Shown: one piece after another, positions 2,358 to 32,924 of the stretch
Position numbering within the stretch: the stretch's first letter is position 1
Layout of the letters: each line of letters begins with the position of its first letter
Source: Escherichia phage vB_EcoM_Maryam
Reading direction: 5' to 3' (one strand)
DNA length: 64,000 nucleotides
Sequence record: PQ799574.1
Notes under the pieces: model-generated
What the model was told of the DNA's origin: nothing
The model's database searches: none
What the model saw: only the letters and a program-made list of their open reading frames with translations
Program-made: the position numbers and the translations under genes

Positions 2358-4535
2358 TTAGGCCGCAAGGGCCTTCATAGTTTTAGCGATTTGGGAAACT
2401 TCATCATCACTTAAAGAGTTGCGATATCCGATGAAGTCGGAAACAATACGGAATTTCTTGGTAAACTCAGCAACCATTTTATCACTGTTTTTTGAAGCAT
2501 TATTTGATAATACATCAAAAAGATTAGTTACTGTCCAGATGTCATGACCGATGGTATCTTTTCCACCATTAAAATATACACCGCGCAATGAACTAACTAT
2601 ATTAGCGAGTCGTGTATATTCTTCAGAAACTTCATCTGTACTGAAGTACTTCATCATAAAATCTAGTTCAGGATACTTGATAATTTTATCAATATATCGT
2701 TGAGCTGAACTTGAATAACCTACATACTTATCATAATCTACATCATCAAAAGCATCTACATATAAATCACGCAAAGCTTCAAAAATACATTGGCACTGAC
2801 CGAGTTCTTTTACCTTTTTCTGTAAAAGCGGACGAATAACATAAAATTCATTAATGCCAATAAGATTAGCCATACGAATCAAAATATTCATAGATGGATG
2901 ACAAAGAGATGTAGTACCATCCATAGAGAAAATATCAGAACGATGCATATACGCTACATAACCAGTAATTTCATCTGCTTCTGATGTGAGCGTAAATAAT
3001 TCCTCTTTTTCCCATCGCCCATCTTTAATTTCAAACTTAAATGCTGTAGCAGCTTTAGGACGAGGAGCTTTACTTTTAACTACCTTTGGAATATAGCTTT
3101 TAACTAAAGCTTCAATTTCTGACAAATAATGAATGTTAACTTCATCACTTTCAAACATCGCCATAATATCAGGAAGTAAATCAATCTGCGATTCTACTTC
3201 CGGATTAATAAACAGAAGACGCTCATTGTGATGAATATTCAAAGTGTTATTAAATTCACTATCATCTAACGCGTGTGCTAATCCACGGACAATATTAACA
3301 CGATTTTTAATATTATCAATAACGATATTAATTTTTGTTGCATTAATACCAAACAGACGATAACTTGATGCAACGGCTGAAGTTTCATGACTTTGCTTAA
3401 TGCGCTTCAGTCGAGGGTCAAGATTTACTTCATACACAACTCCTGCATTACATAACTTACTATCAGGTTCAAACATGCTTTGCATCTTCTTATATGACAG
3501 ATTTTTAGTCGTAAATTTGACTGAATTACTAATCATATAATCTCGAGCAGAATACCCCATCTTCATCAATTCACGATATGTATGACGGGGAGATGTGGAT
3601 TCTTTAAATCGTTTTACATCTTCATTAAATGCTTTCTCACTGAGTTCTTTAACTCGTTCAATGATATTTTTACGAGTGCGATCATCTAGTGAAAGAGCCT
3701 CGCGAGATGGAGCAATATCAAGTGAACCCATTGGAAACTTAATGTAATTCACTTCATTGCGAATGCTTAGCCAGTTACGGTCTCTAATAACACCATCGAT
3801 AGGATAAACAATACCGCCATAGATAGCATATAATCCACCACGATCAGGCCAGTATCTTTCTGGATTTACACCATAATAATCATCAAAATCCGGAAAATAA
3901 TCAATTTCACGGTCAAGACCATTAATGATAGCCAAATCTTTGAACGGTCGCATGATATAAGAAACTTCATAAGCAAAGTTTCTAAAGTCTTTTTCTTCAA
4001 CTGGAACTACGATTTCAATACCAGTTTTATCATCTGGACCCATTTCTTTTACGAATGTAGGTTTAATCTGTGGACCATCACCATCCATGTAAGCTACATA
4101 ACCACGAATTTCACCTTTATGATACGAAGTAATACTAAACGTATCAGTATAACTAAACGGAGATTTAGAACCTAAACCAAATCCGCCAATAAAGTCATTA
4201 GATTCAGCTTTAGATGAACTGAAGTATGAATTATACAACCCAGGAGAATTATCATCACCTTGAATATCAAAATCACTCATACCCGGACCAAAATCTCGAC
4301 AAACAAATCGCGGGTCTAAACGTCCAGGAACTTGTATGATAAATTTCTCTGGATTTCCATTAAGTGCATGAGCATCAATCATGTTAGTAATCAATTCACG
4401 GACTACTGCGCGAATCTTGTTTGTATACAAATCAGACGACAGAATTTTAAATACTTTAGGAGATGCTGTGATGCTAAATGCTTTCGATTTAGAACCATTA
4501 CCAAGAATTGTTTCTTTTTCAGTGGTGATAATCAT
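2358..4535 (-). CDS. rIIA: rIIA protein (725 aa, GHKL-type ATPase fold)
   Basis: Length identical to T4 rIIA; N-terminal ATPase motifs; synteny. Confidence 0.9.
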
Positions 4536-14707: not shown

Positions 14708-15327
14708 TCAACTACCTCAATATCATAAACTTTAAATGTTCCAAATGAATCGTGTAATTTTTCTTTTGAAATAGAAGTTATTCTATACTTTCCAATTGGA
14801 ATCATCCATTCCTGTTCACGCACAATCATCATTAAGTTATCAGTACGCTCTGAATCTAATCCATCAGTATCTTCATACGTGTACTTAAACTCAGTATTAG
14901 GAGAAGAAAGTATAATATCGCTGATATGGTCAGAATAATTAAAAGCTTTATTAGTTTTTAAGCGAAGTATTATTTTAGTAAAATATTCAGCGTAAGAAAA
15001 AGAACATGCTGTGAGCAAACTAGTAGTAAATGAATCTACTCTATTCGTTGAAAACACTTCTCCAACTTGTAAATCTTTAATAAGTTCTTCTGTTGATTTT
15101 GATATACCACGATATAACTGATAAGGTGATTTAGTTAAATGCTTTTTAATGATTTTATTCAACTGCCGATGAAGAGCTTCATTCTTTTTGGCTTCCATAC
15201 ATTGCCAAAGAACTGACTGCTCAAAGTCAGTAAATTTTTCACAGACCTTTTTATACATATCATATTGAAAATCGACGCTTTCAGCTTTTATAGATAACTG
15301 TTCAACATCTGCAAGATTAATAATCAT
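14704..15327 (-). CDS. modB: ADP-ribosyltransferase ModB (207 aa)
   Basis: ART motif (YRG); T4 length and position. Confidence 0.7.
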   Translation of the reverse strand: MIINLADVEQLSIKAESVDFQYDMYKKVCEKFTDFEQSVLWQCMEAKKNEALHRQLNKIIKKHLTKSPYQLYRGISKSTEELIKDLQVGEVFSTNRVDSFTTSLLTACSFSYAEYFTKIILRLKTNKAFNYSDHISDIILSSPNTEFKYTYEDTDGLDSERTDNLMMIVREQEWMIPIGKYRITSISKEKLHDSFGTFKVYDIEVVE

Positions 15328-15394
15328 GATAGCCTCCGTATACTTCAGAAGCTATCATATCATCGTTAGAAAGGAAAGTAAACAACTTTTTGAA

Positions 15395-15577
15395 TTATTT
15401 TGCCCAGGGAGCCCAGGGCGGAGGGTCAAGATGGTATGAAGCTAGTTCTTCTAGAAGAGCATCTGGGGCTTCAATTCCATAATTCTGTAATACTATACGG
15501 TACTCTTTCTTATAATCACTAGAATCATTCTGGATATTCGTAGAATGATTATCTTCTAACATCTCAAATAAATCCAT
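15395..15577 (-). CDS. hypothetical protein (60 aa)
   Basis: ORF only. Confidence 0.35.
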   Translation of the reverse strand: MDLFEMLEDNHSTNIQNDSSDYKKEYRIVLQNYGIEAPDALLEELASYHLDPPPWAPWAK

Positions 15578-15585
15578 ATTAATTC

Positions 15586-16056
15586 CTAGCGATAAAAACC
15601 AAAATGACGATTAGCTTCAGCAATCTTTCTTTCTTCTTCGGACATTCTCCATCGTAGTCCAACATCAAAATGAGCCCAGACCATCCTAACAAATGCATTT
15701 ATATCTTTAATATCTTCAATAATGAATGTTTTACTTTTAGAAGGTTGACTCGCTAATTTAACTTTATCGTCTTCAAACATGTCAAAAAGACCATATTCAT
15801 GAGCTCTTTTATAGCCTTTAATAGTTAAAGCTTCAGAAGAAGAAAATGGTGAATCTGTATTCTGCAAAATATCTTCAGTATGCTTTATAATTAGAATAAT
15901 ATTTTCTGGATATTTTCTTTCTTTTATATCTTTAATTAAAATATCCGGATTTTCTGCTAAAGGAATAATTAATGAGCATTTTTTATCAAGTGTATTTACT
16001 GATTTACCTTCTTTAGACATAAATTCTATTGAATAATGTTTTGCTACTTCAATCAT
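15586..16056 (-). CDS. hypothetical protein (156 aa)
   Basis: ORF in the mod/mrh region. Confidence 0.45.
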
Positions 16057-16209
16057 GGGATTTCCTTTTGCCTACTAATGGACCATCGGGAATTTTGTTT
16101 TCCTGGATATATTTCTCATTTTCTTCCATCATTTTACTGCCAATTTTAAGAAGCAAATCCAGTGCTTCATTTGCTTTAGCTTTAGCCTCTTCCAGCGTCA
16201 TATCTTTGT

Positions 16210-16413
16210 TCACGATTTATCCCCATAGATGTCTCTCATCAATTTAAGCGCTGAGCGTTCTAATTTCTTTTCTTTCTCAGCACTAATCATTGATTTCATC
16301 CATTCTTCCGATTCGTTCTGCATTTCTTTATTTGCTTGTTCAACCCAACCATCATCAATGTACATTGAGTTTGGTCTATTGAACCATTCAAGAATCTTCT
16401 TGAGAGCTTTCAT
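16210..16413 (-). CDS. hypothetical protein (67 aa)
   Basis: ORF only. Confidence 0.35.
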
Positions 16414-16885
16414 TTATTTTACCTAAAACAATAGTAGGAGCATTGTCAAATTTATGAATTTTTAGCAAATTTGGATTTAAATTATTCCATAAAGAGGTAA
16501 TAAAATATGATAGCGCACTTTCGTCCGTAATTATAAATTTATTTCCTTTATCTATTTTCCAATCATATATTGAATCATATGAATAGAAGGATAACGGTTT
16601 ATTATTATAATATGCTTCAGCAACATCAATATAGTTAGATTTAGTAAATGCTTGAATTGCCATAAATGGAGAATTTTGTACAGTTTCAATAATTCCGATC
16701 TTTTTAAGTTTTATTTCAACATCTTCTGGAATTGGCATTGAAATAAAATCTTCTACTAGATACATGTTATTGTCATATCTTTTATCAATCATTACTGCTA
16801 CTGTAATTGGAACATCCTTGACAAACGCCATACTAATGCTATTGATAGACATTTCAAACAAAATTGCTTCCATAATTTTCCTCAA
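16388..16885 (-). CDS. hypothetical protein (165 aa)
   Basis: ORF only. Confidence 0.45.
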
Positions 16886-17223
16886 TCACAAGATGTAGAT
16901 GAACAACTAGAATCACAAGAACTTCCACATGAATCGCCCGTCCATACATAAACAGGAACATTTGTATCATATGAATCAGAACTAGACTGTGTTTTCTGTG
17001 CATTAGATGATGTAGTAGGTGTTGACCAGCGCCAAGGATTTTTATAATATTCTTGGGCTTCTTCATAAGTCATAGTAACTGCTTCTACTGTTCCATCTCC
17101 CATATAAACATACTCAACTACAGTTAAAGGAAGGTAGTCATTTGAAATAGGAACTACACCTTCTCCAGGAGTCGTAGAGAAAAAATCCGTAAAGAAACTT
17201 TTAAACCAATTAAAGATAAACAT
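16882..17223 (-). CDS. hypothetical protein (113 aa) with Cys/Ser-rich C-terminal tail
   Basis: C-terminus [18 protein letters not shown]. Confidence 0.45.
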
Positions 17224-17429
17224 TACAAAAAGCCTCTTTTGAATTCAACTTGTTTATCGCCATAATCATATCGAATTTCTGCATTAAATTCAACAGAACC
17301 ATCTGCGTACATCATAAATGAATGAACAACAACTTCTGTAGACCATGGTTGCAGTTCATATTTCTTCATTACATGCCGTGAAATGATAATATCTAAATCT
17401 TCATTTGGTTTAATCCAACGATTTAACAT
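17223..17429 (-). CDS. hypothetical protein (68 aa)
   Basis: RBS; consensus early promoter at 17456-17485. Confidence 0.45.
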   Translation of the reverse strand: MLNRWIKPNEDLDIIISRHVMKKYELQPWSTEVVVHSFMMYADGSVEFNAEIRYDYGDKQVEFKRGFL

Positions 17430-17455
17430 AATGCTCTCCTCTATAAGATAATTCT

Positions 17456-17485
17456 ATTATACCATACTCATTTTGGAAAGTAAAC
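17456..17485 (-). promoter_or_regulatory. early promoter (GTTTACT-N17-TATAAT)
   Basis: Perfect -10 and 17-nt spacing. Confidence 0.5.
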
Positions 17486-17490
17486 CGGTA

Positions 17491-17520
17491 AAATGAAAAA
17501 AGGACTCCCGAAGGAGTCCT
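17491..17520 (-). terminator. intrinsic terminator after soc
   Basis: 8-bp stem AGGACUCC with UUCG loop, then UUUUUUCAUUU. Confidence 0.7.
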
Positions 17521-17525
17521 TGAAA

Positions 17526-17771
17526 TTATTCACCAGTTACTTTCCACAAATCTTCGTTTGCAGTAATCCATTCAGTACGTTGATTTTCTTCATATACTGT
17601 AGAATATGCTGCTTTTTCTGAAGGGAATATCTGATAATGAGCTCCAGAAATTTTGTGAACGTCAGAATAAAGAGGGAAAGCTACAGAAATTTCCTTTCCT
17701 TCAATTTTCTTATTTCCATCTAATTTCTGCTCAAACGTTTTGATATTAACATAACCGCGAGTACTAGCCAT
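17526..17771 (-). CDS. soc: small outer capsid protein Soc
   Basis: 81-aa ORF of T4 Soc size; late promoter TATAAATA upstream; terminator downstream. Confidence 0.85.
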   Translation of the reverse strand: MASTRGYVNIKTFEQKLDGNKKIEGKEISVAFPLYSDVHKISGAHYQIFPSEKAAYSTVYEENQRTEWITANEDLWKVTGE

Positions 17772-17801
17772 GTAATTCTCCTTTTATTTAAATTACATGA
17801 T

Positions 17802-17809
17802 TATTTATA
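17802..17809 (-). promoter_or_regulatory. late promoter TATAAATA for soc
   Basis: Forward tatttata about 30 nt upstream of the soc ATG. Confidence 0.5.
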
Positions 17810-17993
17810 ATAAATTCTCACGGAACGTTAAAATACCCAATTTTAGTTAATATAACAATATCGCCGTTAATAATTACCGGAGAATAATCGGCTGGAGCAT
17901 TAAATTTTCAATGGGCTCTAATATTATATCCATCAGAACCAAATGCTCGACTAGCCGGTCTCCCGGCTTTTTGCCATGCATAAAAATCAAATT

Positions 17994-18200
17994 TCATTTT
18001 GAATGCTCTATAATTAATTTTAAGGCTTCTTCACGCACCAACTTGCCTAATGGTATATGACCAGTTTTAATTGTGTAAGCTTTGTGGAGCTGATTAGATA
18101 AGAGCTCGTATGTGAGCTCTTTGTCATAATTTTTAAATAGCTGGTCAATACGTTTCTTGCGGGCTTTCTTAAGCTGGCGTTTATTTAAACGAGCCATCAA
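17994..18200 (-). CDS. hypothetical basic protein (68 aa)
   Basis: ORF between 56 and soc. Confidence 0.4.
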   Translation of the reverse strand: MMARLNKRQLKKARKKRIDQLFKNYDKELTYELLSNQLHKAYTIKTGHIPLGKLVREEALKLIIEHSK

Positions 18201-18715
18201 TAACCTCGGTCTTGACGAGCGAAGTTTTCAGCATTTTTCAGATAATAAAGTTTAAAGATTTCTTCAGCTGACATTCCAAGAGCAATGAATTTATTCATGA
18301 AAAAGTGAAATTGGTCAATCAGTTCAAATTTAATTTCAAGCTGATCTTCAGGAGATAAGTCTTGAATTTTCTTGGATTGCATTTCAGAATAACGTTTCTT
18401 CCAAGGTTTCCATACGGCAGAAGCTTCTTTTTCACCATTACTCATACCACCAAGAGAAGTATATAGCTCGCGAGTTTCATCTGCGATATAATCGTCTTGG
18501 TTTCGCAGCCAAGTAAGAACTTCTCCTGCAGTTTCAAGTGAATCGGGATGACGATTTGTTTCTGGTTTATCATTAGCCAAACGAATCTGTAAATGCCGCT
18601 GCATATCAAGCATAACCTGCAGTGGGTCAATATTGTGCATAATATTCTCAGCATATGCACGATTTGCTTTATCAACACCTTCGATCAAATGAGCGCATTC
18701 ATTAAAGTGAGCCAT
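18197..18715 (-). CDS. 56: dCTPase / dUTPase (gp56), 172 aa
   Basis: Start taken at internal ATG (MAHFNE) with RBS; length then matches T4 gp56. Confidence 0.8.
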   Translation of the reverse strand: MAHFNECAHLIEGVDKANRAYAENIMHNIDPLQVMLDMQRHLQIRLANDKPETNRHPDSLETAGEVLTWLRNQDDYIADETRELYTSLGGMSNGEKEASAVWKPWKKRYSEMQSKKIQDLSPEDQLEIKFELIDQFHFFMNKFIALGMSAEEIFKLYYLKNAENFARQDRGY

Positions 18716-18786
18716 TATTTTTCCTTTCAATTCATGAGTTAGTAGATTAATTATACAATAAATATATAAAGCAATAAGGAGGACAT

Positions 18787-18987
18787 ATGGTACAAAAATT
18801 AATGGCACTTGTTAATGCCATCAAAGGTAATAAAAAGCGTATAGCTTTTACTATTTCTGCTATGGTAGGAATTTTACTCTGGAACTTTATTCTATCACCT
18901 GTTGCAATTGCACATGGTATTAATATTCCAGTAGTTACTCTTGATACATTCGTAGATTTAGCATTTGCTTTAGTTGGGTTAATTTAA
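18787..18987 (+). CDS. small hydrophobic protein (66 aa) on the opposite strand to its neighbours
   Basis: Strong RBS AAGGAGG then ATG; hydrophobic segments. Confidence 0.5.
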   Translation: MVQKLMALVNAIKGNKKRIAFTISAMVGILLWNFILSPVAIAHGINIPVVTLDTFVDLAFALVGLI

Positions 18988-20012
18988 ATCTTAGCATATT
19001 TAGATAACCGCATTTTAGCCATCAACCCCTGGGCAATATTATTTTTCATATATTCCATAATTTGTTCAGGGGTTGCACCTTCCTTTCTAATCATATCATT
19101 AACATCTTTTGATTTCCAGGGAGATTTATCCCAAAACATAACCCTTTCTCCTGCATCAACTAATTTAGTCATTCGCTTAATAGTGTCAGGATGACGAGGT
19201 TCATTATCTAAAACCCACACTCGTCTATCTTTAAATGGAACAACTTCTAGGTCTAATTGACCACCCGTAATAGCTATACCATTTTCAATAAAAAGTGAAT
19301 CTATAGGTCCTTCTAGAACATATACATCACCATCTTTAACTCGTTCGACTCCATATATTTTTGTTGCCTCAGGATAAGCTTTAATGGTGATATATTTTTG
19401 AGGAGCATCTTTCTTTAATGCACGTCCTTGAAAAGACTCAGCTTTTCCATTAGCATTATAAATTGGAATAACAAGACGAGGCTCAGAAATTTCCTTTTTG
19501 TATGTTCCCGGTGCTATGCTATTAACTAATTTAGGCCATTCGGTTGTAAACCAAAGATATTTCCATTTATCCTTTGGAATACAACGAGCTTTTACATATT
19601 TTATAATTGGATGGTCTTCCGCCAGTTTATCTAATCTAACACATGACGGAAGAGATTTAATTATTTTCTTCTCAGGTTGCTTAGGAAGTTCTTTAGGTTT
19701 TTCTACTGGACGACTTTTACCTTTTTCTTTTCTTATTTCAAAGATATACTCACGATATAAATCAGGTTCAAACTCCTTTAAATATATTCCGATTGGTGCA
19801 TGATAATTACAGTTATAACAATGAATATTTCCTTCATTATTATCACCATAATACCATCCACGAGCTTTATTCTGGTCGGTTTTTGAATCTCCACAAACAG
19901 GACATCTAAACCGCAATTTAAAAGTTGAACTATTATTTACTTGTGTGAATTTAGGTAAATGAGCCAATGCACGATACGCAAACTCATTATCAATCCAAGG
20001 TATTGATGACAT
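18984..20012 (-). CDS. 61: DNA primase (gp61), 342 aa
   Basis: Zinc-ribbon CPVCG...CYNC; length identical to T4 gp61. Confidence 0.9.
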   Translation of the reverse strand: MSSIPWIDNEFAYRALAHLPKFTQVNNSSTFKLRFRCPVCGDSKTDQNKARGWYYGDNNEGNIHCYNCNYHAPIGIYLKEFEPDLYREYIFEIRKEKGKSRPVEKPKELPKQPEKKIIKSLPSCVRLDKLAEDHPIIKYVKARCIPKDKWKYLWFTTEWPKLVNSIAPGTYKKEISEPRLVIPIYNANGKAESFQGRALKKDAPQKYITIKAYPEATKIYGVERVKDGDVYVLEGPIDSLFIENGIAITGGQLDLEVVPFKDRRVWVLDNEPRHPDTIKRMTKLVDAGERVMFWDKSPWKSKDVNDMIRKEGATPEQIMEYMKNNIAQGLMAKMRLSKYAKI

Positions 20013-22026: not shown

Positions 22027-23454
22027 CTAAAATTTTAATTCATTTGCCAAAGCATCTAACTGAGCTCGAGCTGATTCGTTTCTTTGATAGCGATTCTGTT
22101 CAGCCTGAATCTGTTGTGAACCTGCTACTTCACTCACTTCGGTTGGAGTAGAATCTTGTTCAATTTCTACCCATTTTTGATTTCCTTTTTGAACACCCAT
22201 CAAAAACTTATTCCACTTATTCTTATCACCATATCGTGATTTGATTTGCTTAATAAGTTGTTGTTCAGCAGCTGCTAGCTCCTCAGTTTCAATGACCGCA
22301 AGCATAAAATCAGCTGTTGCTGGAAGACCAGCAGATTCTGCAATATCGCTCATGTTAACATCGGAAGAGTCCCAAGCTTGTTTACCGACCTGTGCTGCAG
22401 TCCAAAGAACAGTTTCGGTTTCAACAGCCAGAGCACGCAATTCCTCTGCGATAGCTTTAACAGTTGTGTAACTATTTTCTGAATAAACTCGGATGCGACA
22501 AGATTTACAAATACCCAGATAGTCGACAATAATGATTGTTGGAACAAAATTCTTTTTGAGCTTCAATTCATTCAAGAGAGACCTGAATGTATTAGCATCT
22601 GCTCCACCAGTAGGGTACTGTTTAACGATTAAACGACCAAGAGTAGATTTCTCACGCCATTTTTCCATTTTTCCTTTATACTCAGCGTAAGAAATATGTC
22701 CATCATCAATATCGTCAAGAGAAACATCGAGCATGTTAGCATCAATACGTTTAGCACAGACTTCTTCGGCCATTTCCATGGAGATATAAAGAACGTTATG
22801 ACCAAGCTGTAAATAATCCGCTGCTAATGAACACAATCCTAATGACTTACCAACGTTAACGCCAGCCATTAAAACGTTCAGTGTTCCTGTTTCAGCTCCG
22901 CCTTTTGTAATTTTATTCAAAATACGAAGTTTAAATGGAACTTTACGAGCTTTATTCATATAAGATAGCCAGCGTGCTTCGTAGTCATCCATCCAATCAT
23001 GACCAACGTAGCTATCAAATGAAATTGATAATGCTTGGCGCATGATGTCAGGAATAGCACCAACATCCGGCATTTTCTTATTTCGTTTTTCCGGAGGAAG
23101 CTCAGCATTAGTTTGAATTTCGATTATTTTAGACGTAGCATTAAACATCGCCCTTTGCTGAACATATTTTTCTGTTTCTTTTACTAACCAGCTGTGGTCT
23201 TCCGGAGAATCAGCCAGTTTTGAAATAAGTGTTTTTACACCAGAATATTCTGTTTCAGTAAATGAACTATTTTCTAATGCAACATTTAACGCATTAATAG
23301 ATGGAACGCTATGGTACTCATTAACATGAGATTTAATTAATTTGAATGTATTTTTAGCTGGACCACTTTCAAAATATTCTGAATCCATATATGGCCAAAC
23401 TTTTGAAAAATAAGCTTGATCAAATATAAGATGAGAAAGAATAATTTCTACCAC
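22027..23454 (-). CDS. 41: replicative DNA helicase (gp41, DnaB-like), 475 aa
   Basis: Walker A GVNVGKS; length identical to T4 gp41. Confidence 0.9.
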   Translation of the reverse strand: MVEIILSHLIFDQAYFSKVWPYMDSEYFESGPAKNTFKLIKSHVNEYHSVPSINALNVALENSSFTETEYSGVKTLISKLADSPEDHSWLVKETEKYVQQRAMFNATSKIIEIQTNAELPPEKRNKKMPDVGAIPDIMRQALSISFDSYVGHDWMDDYEARWLSYMNKARKVPFKLRILNKITKGGAETGTLNVLMAGVNVGKSLGLCSLAADYLQLGHNVLYISMEMAEEVCAKRIDANMLDVSLDDIDDGHISYAEYKGKMEKWREKSTLGRLIVKQYPTGGADANTFRSLLNELKLKKNFVPTIIIVDYLGICKSCRIRVYSENSYTTVKAIAEELRALAVETETVLWTAAQVGKQAWDSSDVNMSDIAESAGLPATADFMLAVIETEELAAAEQQLIKQIKSRYGDKNKWNKFLMGVQKGNQKWVEIEQDSTPTEVSEVAGSQQIQAEQNRYQRNESARAQLDALANELKF

Positions 23455-23463
23455 ACTTACTCC

Positions 23464-23826
23464 TTAAAAGAATTTAAACTTTTTCTTTGACCTTTTATTA
23501 AATGCATCTTGTAGTTGCATTGTAATACATTTTTCTACATGAGGAGCTAACTCAGCTTTTCTTTCTTGGTCAAGAACAGCAAAGTCCATTACAACCTTTC
23601 CATCAACCCAATCCAGTTTAGTTACATACACTATATGTGTAGAACCATCTTCTAGTTTAATGACAATCTCCTGGATAACATTTTCCATGGCAGATTTAAT
23701 TATCTTAAGAGATTCATTAAAAAGACGTTCTTTTCTTTCTTCTTCCCCCTCCGAAGAGGGGGATTCATCGATAATTTCTAGATCTAAATCTAAATCATCT
23801 TTATTCATTAAATTCTTCCATATCAC
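23464..23826 (-). CDS. 40: gp40-like protein (120 aa)
   Basis: Position between uvsX and 41. Confidence 0.5.
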   Translation of the reverse strand: MIWKNLMNKDDLDLDLEIIDESPSSEGEEERKERLFNESLKIIKSAMENVIQEIVIKLEDGSTHIVYVTKLDWVDGKVVMDFAVLDQERKAELAPHVEKCITMQLQDAFNKRSKKKFKFF

Positions 23827-24982
23827 TTAACTGCTCGAGGTCAGTTTCTAAATCAGCAGCTGATTTACTTTTACTTTCTGAAGATTTAAATTTTTCAACT
23901 TTTGAGTTAATCAATTCATCAACTTCAGCTTCAACAATTTCATTACTATCAATAGCACCTAACTGATAAGCACGTTTAATAGCATCTCGGAATGGTTGAT
24001 GCTTAAATAAAGGACCCCAGAATGTAGTGCAGTTGGTATCTTTTGCACGCCAAGATTTTTCTTCGCGAATCATCTCGCCGGTTTCTTCGTCAAGAAATTC
24101 ACGCGCATACCAACCATTTTTAGGTTTTACTACAAATCCTAATTCTAGAGCCATATCTAACAATCCAGAATAAGGATCAATACCACCGTCAAATTTAACA
24201 TCAATAAAGAATTTACTTTTTTCTTTAACGGTACGAGATTTTTCTACATTTAGAACAAATTGATACCCCTGAAGATCAGAACCATCTTTAATCTGACGCT
24301 TACCGATAATGAATACTGTATCAGCCGAATACATTACGCCTGTACCACCTGTCATCACGGTTTTACTAAACATTTCAATTGTTTCAATTGTATGGTTAAC
24401 CGCAACACATGGAATATTTTTAATGCTAAAGTAAGGAGTAACGATACGGAATAATGACTTCAGTGATTTAGCACGAGTCATATCTGCCACAGATTTTTCA
24501 TTTAAGGCATCTTCCGTTTCTTTCTTAGAAGCCATATTACCGATTGAGTCGATGAATACAATAACCTTTTCACCACGCTCAATAGCTTCAAGCTGATTCA
24601 CCATATCAATTTTCAGCTGTTCAACTGACTGAATCGGCGTATGAATTACTCGTTCCGGGTCAACTCCCATGGATCGCAAATAAGCTGGAGTAATACCAAA
24701 TTCACTATCATAGAATAGACAAACCGCGTCAGGATATTTGTTCAAATATGCCGCAACCATAGTCAAAGACATATTTGATTTAAAGTGTTTAGAAGGCCCT
24801 GCGAAAATAGTTAAACCAGACTGCATACCGCCATCAATCGCACCAGAAATAGCGATATTAAGCATTGGGATTTTTGTGCGGATTACATCCTTTTCATTAA
24901 AGAATTTAGATGTAGTCAGTTCAGCAGTCATTTTAGAAGTGGAAGCTTTAATCAAACGGGATTTTAAATCTGCAATAGACAT
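23801..24982 (-). CDS. uvsX: UvsX recombinase (RecA-like), 393 aa
   Basis: RecA-fold Walker A GPSKHFKS; T4 UvsX length and position. Confidence 0.9.
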   Translation of the reverse strand: MSIADLKSRLIKASTSKMTAELTTSKFFNEKDVIRTKIPMLNIAISGAIDGGMQSGLTIFAGPSKHFKSNMSLTMVAAYLNKYPDAVCLFYDSEFGITPAYLRSMGVDPERVIHTPIQSVEQLKIDMVNQLEAIERGEKVIVFIDSIGNMASKKETEDALNEKSVADMTRAKSLKSLFRIVTPYFSIKNIPCVAVNHTIETIEMFSKTVMTGGTGVMYSADTVFIIGKRQIKDGSDLQGYQFVLNVEKSRTVKEKSKFFIDVKFDGGIDPYSGLLDMALELGFVVKPKNGWYAREFLDEETGEMIREEKSWRAKDTNCTTFWGPLFKHQPFRDAIKRAYQLGAIDSNEIVEAEVDELINSKVEKFKSSESKSKSAADLETDLEQLSDMEEFNE

Positions 24983-25059
24983 TCATTTTTTCCATAGGCA
25001 TCATTATATTTTCCTCACTGGTTAAAGATAGAGTAATTATAACATAATAAATTTAGGCA

Positions 25060-25908
25060 TTAATCAACTGCTATTGGATGAATAGCATTAAACTTATGAA
25101 ATGCTTCTGATTTTTCTTTGCGCGAAACGCACATGCGAAGAACCTTTAATGGCTCGTCTTCTTCACCCAACGATTTTCGTTTTTCAATATTAGAAGTTTT
25201 CCAACGAGCTTGCTCTGGAAACTCTCTATTGATTTGCTCAAGCGCTCTATTATGTTTAGAATTACTACGAATTGAACTACACCCGCCAGGAGCTTGTGCT
25301 TTTCCAGATACAACCAGATATTTGAACAAGGCCAAATGCGGATAACCTTGATTAATTAAATTGAGAAATGCATACATATCTTCGCACAAATCAATTTTTC
25401 CATACCCAATTTGTTCTGTCGTAAGTTTTCCGAGGTCATACCATGTATTCGTGAATCCATATGAATTTTCACGATAATTACCCCAAGATGAAGTAATTTT
25501 AAAAATTGGTAGGCGAGCATGACCGTGATAATACCCGCAATCCATGGCATCTTCAACGTATTGAATCAATTCATAGAACTGTTCACGGGTTAATTGATTG
25601 ACTTTATCTACACAACGACGGTCATCTCTTTTTCGCATTGAACTCATACGAATAGTAGTATCATCGTCAATCATCCAGATTCGTTGACCTGCATACATAT
25701 CAGTAATTGCTTTACGAGTACCGGCAATTCCGTTTACATCATCAGGAATAGTTATAATTTTAGCTCTAGACCCATAGGCATCATAATAAGCTTTTTCTTC
25801 ATGTTCACGCACTACAATATGGGGTTCATAATCAGTCGGAAACATATCAAGGGCAGAAACTGCCCCGACACGCTGATAACTTGGAATTACGAATTGAATC
25901 ATTTCCAC
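25060..25908 (-). CDS. glycosyltransferase at the beta-gt locus (282 aa), candidate DNA glucosyltransferase
   Basis: DxD-like motif IWMIDDD; sits between uvsX and 42 where T4 has the 351-aa beta-gt. Confidence 0.5.
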   Translation of the reverse strand: MEMIQFVIPSYQRVGAVSALDMFPTDYEPHIVVREHEEKAYYDAYGSRAKIITIPDDVNGIAGTRKAITDMYAGQRIWMIDDDTTIRMSSMRKRDDRRCVDKVNQLTREQFYELIQYVEDAMDCGYYHGHARLPIFKITSSWGNYRENSYGFTNTWYDLGKLTTEQIGYGKIDLCEDMYAFLNLINQGYPHLALFKYLVVSGKAQAPGGCSSIRSNSKHNRALEQINREFPEQARWKTSNIEKRKSLGEEDEPLKVLRMCVSRKEKSEAFHKFNAIHPIAVD

Positions 25909-26639
25909 TCACCGTTATAATCTTTTTTCACAATATGAGTTTCGCCAGTATTCCACCAATGATCAACCAAGTAAAAATGACGAGAATATACATGAAGACT
26001 TCCAACATTCCATATAATAGAACCTGCTTTATACTGACGAGTTGAATCGCCGGCATTCAAATCAGATACTAATTTATCTAATACGTATTTTTGCCATGCA
26101 TAATCATTACGGAATCCGAAGACCACGTCATTTGAGCGCATGCTTACTACTGCATTGACTTTCTTATCACGAATCAGGTACTGTACTGTATTAGTACACA
26201 TGAAATCTGACATACCATCTTTATTGTAGTCAAATTGCATGGATGGACGAGTATAAATCATGATACCACGTCGAGAATCAGGATTTTGACCAAGTTCAGC
26301 TAAACACATATCATACTGGGCATAGTTATCTTCTGACCAAATAGCCCAACCATAATTCGAGTTAATTTCGCCTTTAGAAGATGCTACCTGCTGCCAAATC
26401 TTTGGTGTTTCGCCTGGAATATCTTTAACAAACAAGCTCTTAGATTTATACCATTCAAGTTCACGCTGAATGTATTCATCATTAAGAGCGCCAAAAATAA
26501 AGGGTTCATCTGCTACAAATGATGCGCCAATAATTTCAATAGTTTTAACGCCAGTTTTATCAACTACGAAATCTTTTTCCTTTAATGCAGTTCCCAAATA
26601 AAAACGGATTTCTTCAACTGTCATAGAGTCATTAATCAT
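25899..26639 (-). CDS. 42: dCMP hydroxymethylase (gp42), 246 aa
   Basis: Length identical to T4 gp42; thymidylate-synthase-like fold. Confidence 0.9.
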   Translation of the reverse strand: MINDSMTVEEIRFYLGTALKEKDFVVDKTGVKTIEIIGASFVADEPFIFGALNDEYIQRELEWYKSKSLFVKDIPGETPKIWQQVASSKGEINSNYGWAIWSEDNYAQYDMCLAELGQNPDSRRGIMIYTRPSMQFDYNKDGMSDFMCTNTVQYLIRDKKVNAVVSMRSNDVVFGFRNDYAWQKYVLDKLVSDLNAGDSTRQYKAGSIIWNVGSLHVYSRHFYLVDHWWNTGETHIVKKDYNGEWK

Positions 26640-26646
26640 TTAAACC

Positions 26647-26796
26647 TCAATTGATACATTCATATTTAACTTGTAACAGTAATAAACCCCAACCTAAAAT
26701 AATAGTCGGAATCATAAGAGGAACCGTTACACTATAGTATATACTTATTATAATCATCAAGATTAAAAGCAACACTTCTATAATTTTGCTTTTCAT
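26647..26796 (-). CDS. small hydrophobic protein (49 aa)
   Basis: ATGA overlap with imm stop; GAGAGAAGGA RBS; own translation. Confidence 0.3.
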   Translation of the reverse strand: MKSKIIEVLLLILMIIISIYYSVTVPLMIPTIILGWGLLLLQVKYECIN

Positions 26797-27044
26797 TCCT
26801 TCTCTCTGATGATAATTACTTGATTTGGCTGTGCAGACTTTTTAGTTTCACCCGCAATTGACCAAATAAATGTAATAAACCAACCAATAATTGACCAGTT
26901 AAACAGCAAAGACGTGAAAAAGATTCCTACTGTCGATTTTGACCCACGCATCAAGGCGATAAACCATGGAAGCATGTATATAATAATAGCCAACACACCT
27001 GAAACTAAAACCATAAAAATTGAACCTGCTACTAAAGTTTCCAT
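26793..27044 (-). CDS. imm: immunity protein Imm (superinfection exclusion), 83 aa
   Basis: Two-TM membrane protein; T4 Imm length and position. Confidence 0.8.
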   Translation of the reverse strand: METLVAGSIFMVLVSGVLAIIIYMLPWFIALMRGSKSTVGIFFTSLLFNWSIIGWFITFIWSIAGETKKSAQPNQVIIIREKE

Positions 27045-27051
27045 GTTTTCC

Positions 27052-27432
27052 TCACTTAGTCAAATTTTTTACGCATGAATTATAAGAATTCACTACATAC
27101 TCCATCGGAGCATTTTTACCGGTACGCCATTGGTAATTATTAGCCCAATTTGCCCAAAGCTCGGCGCAGTAGTTTTCAATTTTTTCTTCGCGTGTAATTA
27201 CATCCGAATTACGATATGCTTGAGCAGATTCATCTGGACGAATAGCTTCGTCAAAATTTGCCTGCATTTGTTCTACTGTTTGCTTTGGAGCTTCTTTATA
27301 ACACTTGACATTAGGATTATAAAACTTGCTTGAACAGTTTACAATTTTTCCTACATCAGACTGATTTACTACCGGTCCTTGAGCCACACAACCAGTAAGA
27401 CCTAATGCAATAACCAAAATAGCGATTTTCAT
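27052..27432 (-). CDS. putative lipoprotein (126 aa)
   Basis: Signal peptide with lipobox LTGC. Confidence 0.5.
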   Translation of the reverse strand: MKIAILVIALGLTGCVAQGPVVNQSDVGKIVNCSSKFYNPNVKCYKEAPKQTVEQMQANFDEAIRPDESAQAYRNSDVITREEKIENYCAELWANWANNYQWRTGKNAPMEYVVNSYNSCVKNLTK

Positions 27433-27862: not shown

Positions 27863-30558
27863 TCAGCCAAACAGGAAGTCTAACGAAGCTTTTTCTTCAT
27901 AGTCCATACCAGCCGATTCACACATGCCTGCAAGCGGTTTAACAAACGATTTTTGGAACAAAGTTGAGTAGTCAATCCAAGATAGTACATCAGAACGAAT
28001 TTCTTTTGGAAGTTCTGTACCCGACGGCCAAGCAATGCACTTGTCGCCAAATGGATTTCCTTCACGTAATGGAAGAACCATTACCTTATTTCCATCCAAA
28101 ATTGGAGCTACACCCAGACCACTAACAGCTCGACGATAAGTTAGCACACCACGAATATGGAACGGGCATTTAAATCCTGGCCAACCTTTATCATCATATT
28201 TCGCTATATCGTTCGCAGTTTTTACTTCAGCAATAACTTTATAGTCAAGTTGACGATATTCTTTCTCGAAGTTCTTGTAATATTCTTGGACAGACTCTTC
28301 ACCTTCCTGAAGAATACGACGAATACTTTCTTCAAGAGCTTCTTGAACTGCTTTAGGCGTTGAACTTTGCTGAGTTTCCATACCCATGATTTTTAGATGC
28401 GGTTCAGCAAAACGCTTATCTTCCATATCATATACGTTCAGAGCATAACGCTTTTTCGCTTTCCAAAATCCACCAACGCCCTTTGAACCAAGTGGAGGGC
28501 AAGAAATAGCTTCACGGTCCATATGCATCAGATGCTCGCGGTTATTCATATAATCACATAACTCACGATATGCAACATCAATCATAGGTTCCATCTTTTT
28601 CTTACCGAACTGATTCATGAATTCAACTAAATCGTTCTGCTCTTTGAATCGGTCAAGACCAACTTTTTCAATAACTTTATCTACACAAACATATACCGAA
28701 TCAGTATCACCTGCTGCAATGAAATCTTCGCCATTAGTTCCGCACACTTTATTCAGATACTCATTAATTTTACGAGCAATCCACTGAATACCAACTTGGC
28801 CGAAAATTGTGATAGCAGTAGCATTTCGCAAATCATAGTAACGGAAATGAATATTACCAAGAGCACCGTAAAGGCTGTTAATAAGAATTTTACGGTTCAG
28901 CTGATTTGTATTAGCAAGTGTAGCCGCTTTTTCACATTCTTCAATCAAACTATTGAGAACAGATTCAGTATAATTCGATAGTTCATTTAAGAAATCATCA
29001 CTGAACTTAACATATCGTTCAACTTCAGGTTTAGTTGAACAAGACCCTGCGCCTTTCATAATAATCTTTTTAATAGCTTCGGCATTCATTTCTTCAGCGA
29101 ACATTTTCTTTTTCCAATCTTTACGCTGGAAAAATACTTTAGCGATTTCCTTTGGAATGATACCTTCTTGATGCTTATCGTACATCCATCCATTCGGAGA
29201 ACAAGAATATTCATCACTCGGTTTAGGAGCTGTTCCTGCGATATATTCATGAATTGGATGAACTTTAAACTGACCACGAATAGTCTCAGGACTAATGTTA
29301 ACCTGACGAATAATGCTCGGATACAGAGACGTCAAGTCAAAACTCATAATATATCGACGAGCAATTGGTTTAGGTTCAAATACAAATGCACCCGGAAAAC
29401 TCTGTTTAACGTGCGAACCTTGTTGAGGAATAACCTTATGTTCACCTTTCAATGAGTTAAAAATAATAGCATCCCAGGTTTTAATAGGACTCATTACACC
29501 AGAAAAAGGCATTTTAGCGTAATAAGACATACTTAAAACTAGATCGATAAACCCGCGAATTTTATCAATTGCTTGAACTGATTCTACGTCAATGATGTTA
29601 TAACTAATGTATCGTTGATGATTAGTCTCACGAAGTTTATTAATAGGACCGTCGTATGGTAATTTACCTTTTTTGGTTTCATGCTGAGCAACTGATTCCA
29701 AAGAGAATGACGGCAAATTAGTAAATGCGAATTTCTTATACAAATCTAAATAATCAAGAATAGATACGCCATCAATAGAATAAATTTCTTTGCTACCGTA
29801 CATATTTTGGATAAGTTTAGATTTTACTCGACCGATTGGAGAGAAGCGTTTCATACTACGTTCACCGAGAACCATTTTAACGCGATTCATGATATACGGA
29901 ACGTCAAATCCCTCAATATTCCAACCAGTAAAAATAGCAGGTCGTTTCTGTTCCCAGAGATTGATATATTCCATGAGCATATCACGCTCATTATCGAATG
30001 GCATATAAATTACTCGGTCAAGAATTTCTTGAGGAACTTCATCACCACCTTCACAGTCAAGCTTAGCAGCTAACTTTGCATCCCATTTTGATACTGAACC
30101 ATACATTGAATTCAAAAGGTCGAAAACATAAAAACGATCATCAATTGAATCGTAATGAGTGATAGCATCAATTTCATATTCAGCTTTCATTGGGTCAGGA
30201 AATTTATCACCAGTAACCTCAATGTCACAGTTAGCTACACGAACAAATTTTCGGTCATAAACAATTTCTGAACCGTATGTATCACTGATAAAGCGAGTTT
30301 AAAATCGTTCATACCGAGAGCTTCGAGACCGATGTCTTCCATTCGTTTCATCCAATCTCGAGCATCTTTCATTGATGGAAATTTTTGAGGAGCGCAGTTT
30401 TTACCATAGATGTCTTTGTACTTTGACTCTTCCTTACAATGCCTAAACATAGTTGGAAGATATTCTACTTCACGAGTACGTTCCTTTCCATTTTCATCAA
30501 TATAACGTTCAACAATATTATTTCCGACTGTTTCAATAGAGATATAAAATTCTTTCAT
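27863..30558 (-). CDS. 43: DNA polymerase gp43 (family B), reading frame broken by an apparent 1-nt deletion near 30289
   Basis: 107-aa N-terminal ORF (30235-30558) plus 775-aa ORF (27863-30190); the frame of the large ORF stays open upstream to about 30290; fragments sum to the 898 aa of T4 gp43. Confidence 0.85.
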
Positions 30559-31255: not shown

Positions 31256-31801
31256 TTACCATTCCAATGCTAGTTTTTTGAGTTGTTTCTGTTCTTTTAC
31301 GTTCTTAGTCACTTCTTTCAAAAAATCATCCGTGACTAAACCTTTTAGTTCTTTTAATACTAAAGGAAGTTTTCCATTTTTAGTAAGAATTGATTTATAG
31401 TTAATTGCATCATTTGTATTAACTTGATACCACTTAGCAAGTAACTTAATAATCAATACTTCGGTGGAATCTTCAACCAGTTTTGCCCATTTACCGTATC
31501 TTTTACCACGAGGAACTGCAGCCATTAGATAATTAAAATGAGCTTCATCACTTAAGCCTGATCCAATTAAATTCATAGCATATACAGCTGGCATGCACTC
31601 TGGAAATTGTGATAATGCATTTTCAACCATGAATTTTGAATAATCTTTTTGAGCAATAGAGCATTTAGTTTTATTATTGATAGCTCCAATTATTTCAAAA
31701 AATTCATTTTCAGCTTTTTCTTTAAAAGAATCAGCAGCGGATTGGACAGCTGTCCAATCTTTTGAATACCAAGCAAGTAGGAAAAGATTATGTATGCCCA
31801 T
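31256..31801 (-). CDS. 62: clamp-loader subunit gp62 (181 aa), 5' end possibly altered
   Basis: Position next to regA; about 6 aa shorter than T4 gp62 as I recall it; in-frame TAA directly upstream of the ATG. Confidence 0.75.
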
Positions 31802-31909
31802 TTAGTTCTCCGGTAAATGGAATGCTAAAACCTGCTTTACGCGATCTTTATATTGCGATGAACGAAGAAATGATAAAAGAATTAAAACGTCAACTGAAGG
31901 TGATTTAAT

Positions 31910-32128
31910 TTGGCCAGGGAAATTAATTCAAAATCCGATTATTTTAATTCTCTCAATGATAAAGATAAAAATCTAATACGGCATTTTATTGTTGAGATGG
32001 GATATACCGATACACGCGATTTAAGAGAACATATATTTGAATGTGGTGTAGCTAAAAAGTTTTCATTCACATGCAAATGTTTGAGAGAGGTAATTCAGCA
32101 CTATGAACAATTTAGTCGCAAAACATAA
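31910..32128 (+). CDS. hypothetical protein (72 aa by track, TTG start)
   Basis: ORF only; start codon uncertain. Confidence 0.35.
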   Translation: MAREINSKSDYFNSLNDKDKNLIRHFIVEMGYTDTRDLREHIFECGVAKKFSFTCKCLREVIQHYEQFSRKT

Positions 32129-32211
32129 TTTTAATAAAGCTTCTGTTCATAAGGATAAGAAGAAAGCGTTTAAAGAATCTAATCGCAAGCAGAAACATAA
32201 GGGGAAGGTCT

Positions 32212-32490
32212 ATGATTATTGATTCTCAGTCTGTGGTTCAATACACAATCAAAATTGATATTCTAGAAAAGCTATATAAGTTTCTACCAAATTTATACCA
32301 CTCAATTGTTAATGAATTAGTTGAAGAACTACATCTCGAGAATAATGATTTCTTGATTGGAACTTATAAAGACCTCTCAAAAGCAGGATATTTCTACGTA
32401 ATTCCAGCACCAGGAAAAAGTATTGATGATGTATTAAAAACTATAATGATTTATGTCCATGATTATGAAATTGAAGATTATTTCGAATGA
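32212..32490 (+). CDS. arn: Arn anti-restriction protein (inhibitor of McrBC), 92 aa
   Basis: T4 Arn length; adjacent to asiA; GGGGAAGG RBS. Confidence 0.7.
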   Translation: MIIDSQSVVQYTIKIDILEKLYKFLPNLYHSIVNELVEELHLENNDFLIGTYKDLSKAGYFYVIPAPGKSIDDVLKTIMIYVHDYEIEDYFE

Positions 32491-32639
32491 GTCATAATCT
32501 TGAAAAAGTAATCGAGCATAATGTAGCTCAGGAACGTAAGTCGTTCAAGGAATTCGTAGAAAAAATTTTTGAAGAAAATAGCACAGACCAGTTTACAAAT
32601 CAAACGTCTGATGATATTATAACAAAGTCAACTAATTGA
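32487..32639 (+). CDS. small protein (50 aa), asiA.1-like
   Basis: ATGA overlap with arn stop; own translation. Confidence 0.35.
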   Translation: MSHNLEKVIEHNVAQERKSFKEFVEKIFEENSTDQFTNQTSDDIITKSTN

Positions 32640-32651
32640 GTGGTATAGTTA

Positions 32652-32924
32652 ATGAATAAAAATATTGATACAGTTCGTGAAATTATTACTGTTGCGTCTA
32701 TTTTGATTAAATTTTCCAGAGAAGATATTGTTGAAAATCGTGCTAATTTTATTGCATTTCTGAATGAGATTGGAGTAACGCATGAAGGTAGAAAGTTAAA
32801 TCAGAATTCATTCCGTAAAACTGTTTCTGAATTAACTCAAGAAGATAAGAAAACCCTCATCGACGAATTCAACGAGGGTTTTGAGGGTGTATATCGATAT
32901 CTAGAGATGTATACGAACAAATAA
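32652..32924 (+). CDS. asiA: anti-sigma-70 factor AsiA (90 aa)
   Basis: T4 AsiA length; convergent with holin t. Confidence 0.85.
   Translation: MNKNIDTVREIITVASILIKFSREDIVENRANFIAFLNEIGVTHEGRKLNQNSFRKTVSELTQEDKKTLIDEFNEGFEGVYRYLEMYTNK

Follow-up and report, generated by a model that had tools for sequence, protein, structure and literature searches.

The gene between uvsX and gene 42 in Escherichia phage vB_EcoM_Maryam (record PQ799574.1) is very probably an intact T2/T6-type beta-glucosyl-HMC-alpha-glucosyltransferase (ba-gt), a GT-A-fold enzyme that attaches the second glucose of gentiobiosyl-hmC. Within the window, by which we mean the whole 64,000-nt stretch analyzed, the list of open reading frames places a minus-strand ORF with a GTG start and 282 aa at 25060..25908, flanked by uvsX and gene 42. 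T4 is annotated in the same interval with a 351-aa b-gt preceded by segA. The original prediction held that a glycosyltransferase different from T4 b-gt occupies this position, and the ORF, the Pfam assignments of its neighbors and the T4 annotation all agree. The gene, its locus, fold class, product and role in defense evasion have already been published, and the identification is in itself nothing new to biology; the gene should be annotated as beta-glucosyl-HMC-alpha-glucosyltransferase (ba-gt/TAGT). The features that define the locus are as follows.

25060..25902, minus strand: coding sequence of ba-gt (ggt, TAGT), 280 aa plus stop from the ATG at 25902, assigned from PF20691, PHROG 842 and the N-termini of homologues
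25899..25902, minus strand: ATGA overlap, in which the ba-gt start (25902..25900) overlaps the gene 42 stop (25901..25899), read from the sequence
25899..26639, minus strand: gene 42, dCMP hydroxymethylase, the upstream neighbor (Pfam PF00303, Thymidylat_synt; annotated in relatives)
23801..24982, minus strand: uvsX recombinase, the downstream neighbor (Pfam RecA and T4_UVSX_C)
24971..25916, no strand: cassette unlike T4, from blastn against T4 and T6, whose T4 counterpart is segA plus b-gt

Profile and sequence searches place the protein in a single phage family. It matches PHROG 842, named "beta-glucosyl-HMC-alpha-glucosyltransferase", at E 2e-89, and Pfam PF20691 (TET-associated glycosyltransferase, TAGT) at 38.9 bits, the gathering threshold being 27.5; the latter match covers residues 5–209 and profile positions 2–205 of 205. 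Identity to T2 ba-gt is 278/280 against both T2 records, and identity to T6 ggt is 98.9% over the 262 aa compared. Together with the two profile matches and the colinearity with T6 described below, these values bear out the suggestion that this is the second-glucose transferase of T2/T6-type phages. Four records carry a protein that is 100% identical by tblastn (vB_Eco_EH2, PE37, slur07 and Ptacy1496). The gene is present at full length and at least 90% nucleotide identity in 474 phage records, nearly all of them Tequatrovirus (megablast), and it is therefore not a chance ORF. Homologues extend to 688 records in tblastn, including ~200 T4-like phages of Klebsiella, Enterobacter and Citrobacter at 60–80% identity. 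No NCBIfam model matches the protein, and T4 a-gt and b-gt show no detectable similarity to it (blastp/tblastn E > 1). We also considered membership in CAZy GT2 and rejected it, as there is no Pfam GT2 match at E ≤ 1 and no PDB sequence match, and the likeness is at fold level only; TAGT has been described as a sister group to GT2 and not a member (PMC13216743).

Translation of ba-gt almost certainly begins at the ATG at 25902, which lies two codons 3′ of the GTG at 25908, and yields a product of 280 aa. The homologues, including those at only 32% identity, all begin M-(x)-IQFVIPSY, and the ATG equivalent to 25902 is the annotated start in CrRp10, wV7, EH2, EL and T2; T2 ba-gt is listed at 280 aa (PMC6024577). 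On the strength of these N-termini and published annotations we dropped the GTG as start, so that the originally proposed length of 282 aa holds for the ORF as called from 25908 and not for the protein. The ATGA overlap with gene 42 is likewise annotated in the same five phages, and this arrangement suggests that ba-gt is translationally coupled to and co-transcribed with gene 42.

The gene occupies a precisely bounded cassette next to the maker of the hmC precursor, the gene 42 dCMP hydroxymethylase. Homology to T4 stops at 24970, within the 5′ end of uvsX, and restarts at 25917, in the 3′ end of gene 42 (blastn), and the exchanged cassette therefore runs exactly from the uvsX start to the gene 42 stop. 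By the same method the window aligns colinearly with T6 at 97% over 23422..27100, which spans uvsX-ggt-42, a synteny common to T6, T2 and the window. The spacer between uvsX and ba-gt is 77 nt long (24983..25059) and is conserved in 455 records. Neither promoters nor terminators stand out above chance in 24800..27000, where promoter-like sites number 12 (10.1 expected) and terminator-like hairpins 1 (1.1 expected).

Two smaller sequence elements lie within the gene. At its 3′ end, a 25-nt island (25058..25082) matches T4 24238..24262, which lies between segA and b-gt, at 96% identity. Nowhere else in the exchanged cassette is there homology to T4, and the island may be what is left of an intergenic element common to both, or a recombination boundary. 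Codons 12–18 contain a 7-bp GC-rich hairpin (GGGGCAG TTT CTGCCCT; 25850..25866, minus strand) followed by a T-rich stretch, which is also found in T2 and T6. We assign it no function, because the count of terminator-like hairpins equals the chance expectation.

Conservation across the family and structural modeling both point to an intact GT-A enzyme. Searching 1.84 billion representative proteins with a profile gave 2,165 clusters of the family (E ≤ 1e-3), and the representatives of 153 of these clusters make up our conservation alignment. Two of the conserved sites lie as follows.

25660..25668, minus strand: codons of D79-D80-D81, the DxD-type metal/UDP-sugar motif of the GT-A fold (IWMIDDD), read from the sequence
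25870..25872, minus strand: codon CGT of R11, in the N-terminal IPSYQR motif after beta-strand 1, invariant in the family and His in T2

Arg is found at position 11 in 151/153 representatives, the other two being gaps. D80, D175 and G207 are present in all 153, D79 in 151, D81 in 146, G206 in 152 and R212 in 150, and G186 is also invariant or nearly so. The window protein keeps every one of these residues (R11, D79–D81, D175, G186, G206–G207 and R212) and all the family motifs (IPxxxR, DDD, ED and PGGxSxxR); the DxD-like motif IWMIDDD is thus present as originally reported.

Modeled with AlphaFold2 from nine homologues (pLDDT 74.6, pTM 0.78), the protein shows alternating strands and helices over residues 3–128, with the DDD directly after a predicted strand at E74–78. 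In a structure search with this model, the 55 PDB matches inspected at E ≤ 0.001 all have GT-A folds or folds of related NDP-sugar transferases, among them TarS, TarP, WrtF, AvpGT, chondroitin polymerase K4CP and RmlA, a likeness at the level of fold only (E about 2e-4, TM 0.34–0.45, 9–15% identity). The best match in BFVD is a protein annotated as ba-gt in Klebsiella phage PKO111 (TM 0.84), followed by phage proteins with TAGT domains (TM 0.5–0.66). As modeled, the protein is a GT-A enzyme with a single Rossmann-like alpha/beta domain and a DxD motif. T6 TAGT has likewise been modeled as a GT-A enzyme in a sister group to GT2, and a-gt and b-gt are GT-B enzymes (PMC13216743). The HMM and structure searches put forward with the original prediction gave the PHROG 842 and PF20691 matches and the GT-A fold matches. 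A PDB sequence search returned only two chance-level matches (E 1.6–2) to unrelated PNPOx-like proteins, and we found neither a solved structure nor in-vitro kinetics for the ba-gt/TAGT family.

Published chemistry of phages carrying this gene shows the gentiobiosyl product. DNA of EH2, whose protein is identical to that of the window, consists of ~two-thirds alpha-5-gentiobiosyl-mdC, one-third 5hmdC and a trace of alpha-glucosyl-mdC, with no beta-glucosyl form (HPLC-MS, PMC13390438). The DNA of NR1, QOTSP and CP, Tequatrovirus members of the Durham Collection, has the same make-up (PMC13390438); their ba-gt genes are 98% identical at the nucleotide level to that of the window (megablast). Gentiobiosyl-hmC is likewise published for T6 DNA (PMC13390438). 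Like T6, these four phages have an alpha-GT and a TAGT syntenic with T4 beta-GT (PMC13390438). The measurements corroborate the expectation of a hypermodification pattern different from that of T4.

Deletion of the gene in T6 changes both DNA chemistry and sensitivity to defense. DNA of T6 without ba-gt carries only alpha-glucosyl-hmC and is degraded by Brig1 in vitro, and the mutant is more Brig1-sensitive in vivo (PMC11078745). DNA of T6 delta-g-gt is also a substrate of the BapA deglucosylase, and wild-type T6 DNA is not (preprint, bioRxiv 10.64898/2026.02.25.707755). The altered sensitivity to modification-targeting systems that was anticipated for this locus is therefore matched by the Brig1 and BapA responses of the T6 mutants. 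Gentiobiosyl-hmC has been published to withstand Brig1 in vitro and deglucosylation by BapA, yet it is still a target of GmrSD/BrxU-type enzymes.

These observations suggest a pathway in which ba-gt, a protein of ~32 kDa, would be made early in infection from a position directly downstream of gene 42, to which it is probably translationally coupled. Gp42 and the replisome would put 5-hydroxymethylcytosine into phage DNA, alpha-gt would then attach an alpha-linked glucose to hmC, and ba-gt would add a second glucose from UDP-glucose in beta-1,6 linkage to the first sugar, forming gentiobiosyl-hmC. D79–D81 would provide the site for the metal and nucleotide-sugar, the catalytic roles of single residues being putative. 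A beta linkage formed from UDP-alpha-glucose implies an inverting reaction, in keeping with the GT2-like GT-A fold and the DxD site at D79–D81. The second sugar would hide alpha-glucosyl-hmC from defenses that recognize the monoglucosylated base.

A different acceptor for the enzyme is improbable on present evidence. That ba-gt glucosylates bare hmC directly, standing in for T4 b-gt, could be argued from its place in the b-gt slot and from the many phages that have a solitary TAGT and no alpha- or beta-GT, where other acceptors are possible (PMC13216743). We nevertheless judge this very unlikely, as beta-glucosyl-hmC is absent from phages whose protein is identical or 98% identical, and these leave ~one-third of their hmC bare (PMC13390438), in T6 without the gene the gentiobiosyl form alone disappears and alpha-glucosyl-hmC persists, and the protein has no sequence or fold relation to the GT-B enzyme b-gt. 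More improbable still is that the enzyme acts on something other than DNA, for example a polymer of the host envelope or a protein of the phage. In favor of this, the solved structures most similar to it are GT-A enzymes of teichoic acid and polysaccharide synthesis (TarS, TarP, WrtF and K4CP). The original prediction named strong homology to a non-DNA glycosyltransferase as an observation that would speak against it; what we found are these matches, at fold level only and with the low TM scores and identities given above. Furthermore, PF20691 is a DNA-modification-associated family, the gene is probably coupled to gene 42, which encodes the hmC synthase, and it is DNA chemistry that changes in the T6 deletion mutants.

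It could also be that the gene is intact and has no substrate or relevance, the genome being truly rearranged and alpha-gt lost. In the window, tblastn with the T4 and T6 proteins found neither alpha-gt nor b-gt (nothing at E < 1), and genes 44 to 55 are missing past a breakpoint in gene 62. To the left of this junction (31777/31778) lies a T4-type early region that ends within gene 62, whose N-terminus is lost (context 31256..32924); to the right lies the reverse complement of the arn/asiA/t/38/37/36/35/34/rnh...32 region. An assembly mis-join is the likelier origin of the junction, a very large inversion being the alternative. It cuts an essential gene and is spanned by no public phage record. 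Gene 43, the DNA polymerase gene, is moreover split by a 1-nt deletion relative to wV7 near 30243 (CGCTTATATCAG to CGCTTTATCAG), leaving two fragments.

30235..30558 and 27863..30190: ORFs representing fragments of gene 43, separated by a single-base frameshift

Since gene 43 is essential, this frameshift probably arose in sequencing or assembly, and together with the junction it suggests an imperfect assembly. Alpha-gt lies beside gene 47 in wV7, EH2, EL, T6 and T2, that is, in all close relatives examined, and EH2 has the normal order 62-44-45-46-47-agt. Even a real inversion would simply place alpha-gt outside the 64-kb window. We therefore hold true loss of alpha-gt to be highly improbable: the window lacks the gene because the junction removes genes 44 to 55, and this is not evidence of its absence from the genome. 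The favored reading remains an intact second-glucose transferase in a phage that itself would have alpha-gt and gentiobiosylated DNA. The window contains no Dam-type (DPPY) methyltransferase ORF anywhere; EL carries Dam between genes 56 and 61, and the counterpart of that interval in the window (16000..19000) is without a Dam ORF.

Phages that share ba-gt differ in how much of their DNA it diglucosylates. Reported gentiobiosyl content is ~5% in T2, about 40% in EL and about 67–72% in EH2 and T6, and the quantitative outcome is therefore not fixed by the presence of the gene. In both T2 records (AP018813 4283..5125 and MH751506 4286..5128, extract positions), ba-gt has the substitutions R11H and P251S. 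These are the two residues at which EH2 and T2 ba-gt differ, and their alpha-gt proteins differ by one conservative change (D327E). Because two such nearly identical sets of glucosyltransferases go with ~5% and ~67% gentiobiosyl content, R11H is a candidate cause of the low diglucosylation of T2. We advance this tentatively, from the invariance of R11 in the alignment, as a possible though somewhat doubtful explanation of why T2 DNA is mostly monoglucosylated, which has long been unexplained; we did not find it stated in the literature consulted on ba-gt. If true, the balance of mono- and diglucosyl forms, and with it sensitivity to Brig1-type defenses, would be partly readable from codon 11, and the present phage would be predicted to resemble T6 and EH2 in having a high gentiobiosyl content.

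The comparison with EL shows the limits of such predictions. EL differs from EH2 by 7 substitutions in ba-gt and 33 in alpha-gt, and also carries Dam. We considered predicting the mono-/diglucosyl ratio from the ba-gt allele alone, an idea weakened by the different ratio measured in EL; as EL differs in both ba-gt and alpha-gt type and has Dam, the cause of its ratio cannot be assigned to any one of them.

Other alleles show further variation. The T6 record MH550421 (4138..4980 in the extract) has CAG changed to TAG at ba-gt codon 10, a Q10 amber, which is why ba-gt is annotated there as 261 aa from an internal Met. In the T6 record AP018814 (4135..4974 in the extract), one Asp of the invariant DDD is lost in-frame, leaving 279 aa. 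Alpha-gt falls into two allele classes that are ~91% identical, T2/EH2/wV7 and T4/T6/EL, with 33–36 differences in 400 aa, and these classes pair with the ba-gt alleles in different ways.

EH2 2438..3640, wV7 14924..16126 and T2 2394..3596 (extract positions): alpha-gt of the T2/EH2/wV7 class

Most Tequatrovirus phages combine alpha-gt with ba-gt, and T4 b-gt is the exception. An alpha- or beta-GT together with a TAGT is reported as the common arrangement, with the alpha plus beta pair of T4 in 6/753 genomes (PMC13216743), and 12/14 sequenced RB phages have a-gt and ba-gt (PMC6024577). We accordingly predict that this phage carries alpha-glucosyl- and gentiobiosyl-hmC and not the alpha/beta mixture of T4. 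The predicted modification sets the expected response to modification-dependent defenses, and is thereby useful for choosing therapy phages and for reading host range.

Among the closest known systems, the EH2 glucosyl transferase (OZ034684, EH2_028) is 100% identical as a protein and lies at the same locus; EH2 has an annotated alpha-gt and normal gene order, whereas the window breaks off within gene 62. The ba-gt of T2 and T6 (ggt; UniProt Q06717 / Q06718 as cited in PMC6024577) is the same gene at the same locus with the same ATGA overlap. Where T2 has H11 and S251, the window allele keeps the consensus residues R11 and P251, and unlike the sequenced T6 stocks it has neither the Q10 amber of MH550421 nor the DDD to DD change of AP018814. 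The protein shares the four motifs of the PF20691 TAGT family, and its modest score against that profile indicates that the T-even proteins form a divergent branch. Its partners also differ from those of a typical TAGT, being a thymidylate-synthase-type hydroxymethylase and alpha-gt instead of a TET/JBP dioxygenase. With the inverting GT-A enzymes of GT2, exemplified by TarS (5TZ8) and TarP (6H2N) of S. aureus, it has in common the Rossmann-like GT-A fold, a DxD after a beta-strand and a beta-linked product; it is set apart from them by the low identity and TM values above, the missing Pfam GT2 match and a DNA-linked sugar as acceptor. Finally, T4 b-gt (351 aa, GT-B, PDB 1JG7 as cited in PMC13216743) occupies the equivalent slot, and likewise uses UDP-glucose, forms a beta linkage and acts on hmC DNA. 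In contrast, the enzyme described here is GT-A and not GT-B, is unrelated to b-gt in sequence and would act on alpha-glucosyl-hmC where b-gt acts on bare hmC, and the T4 slot also houses the homing endonuclease gene segA.
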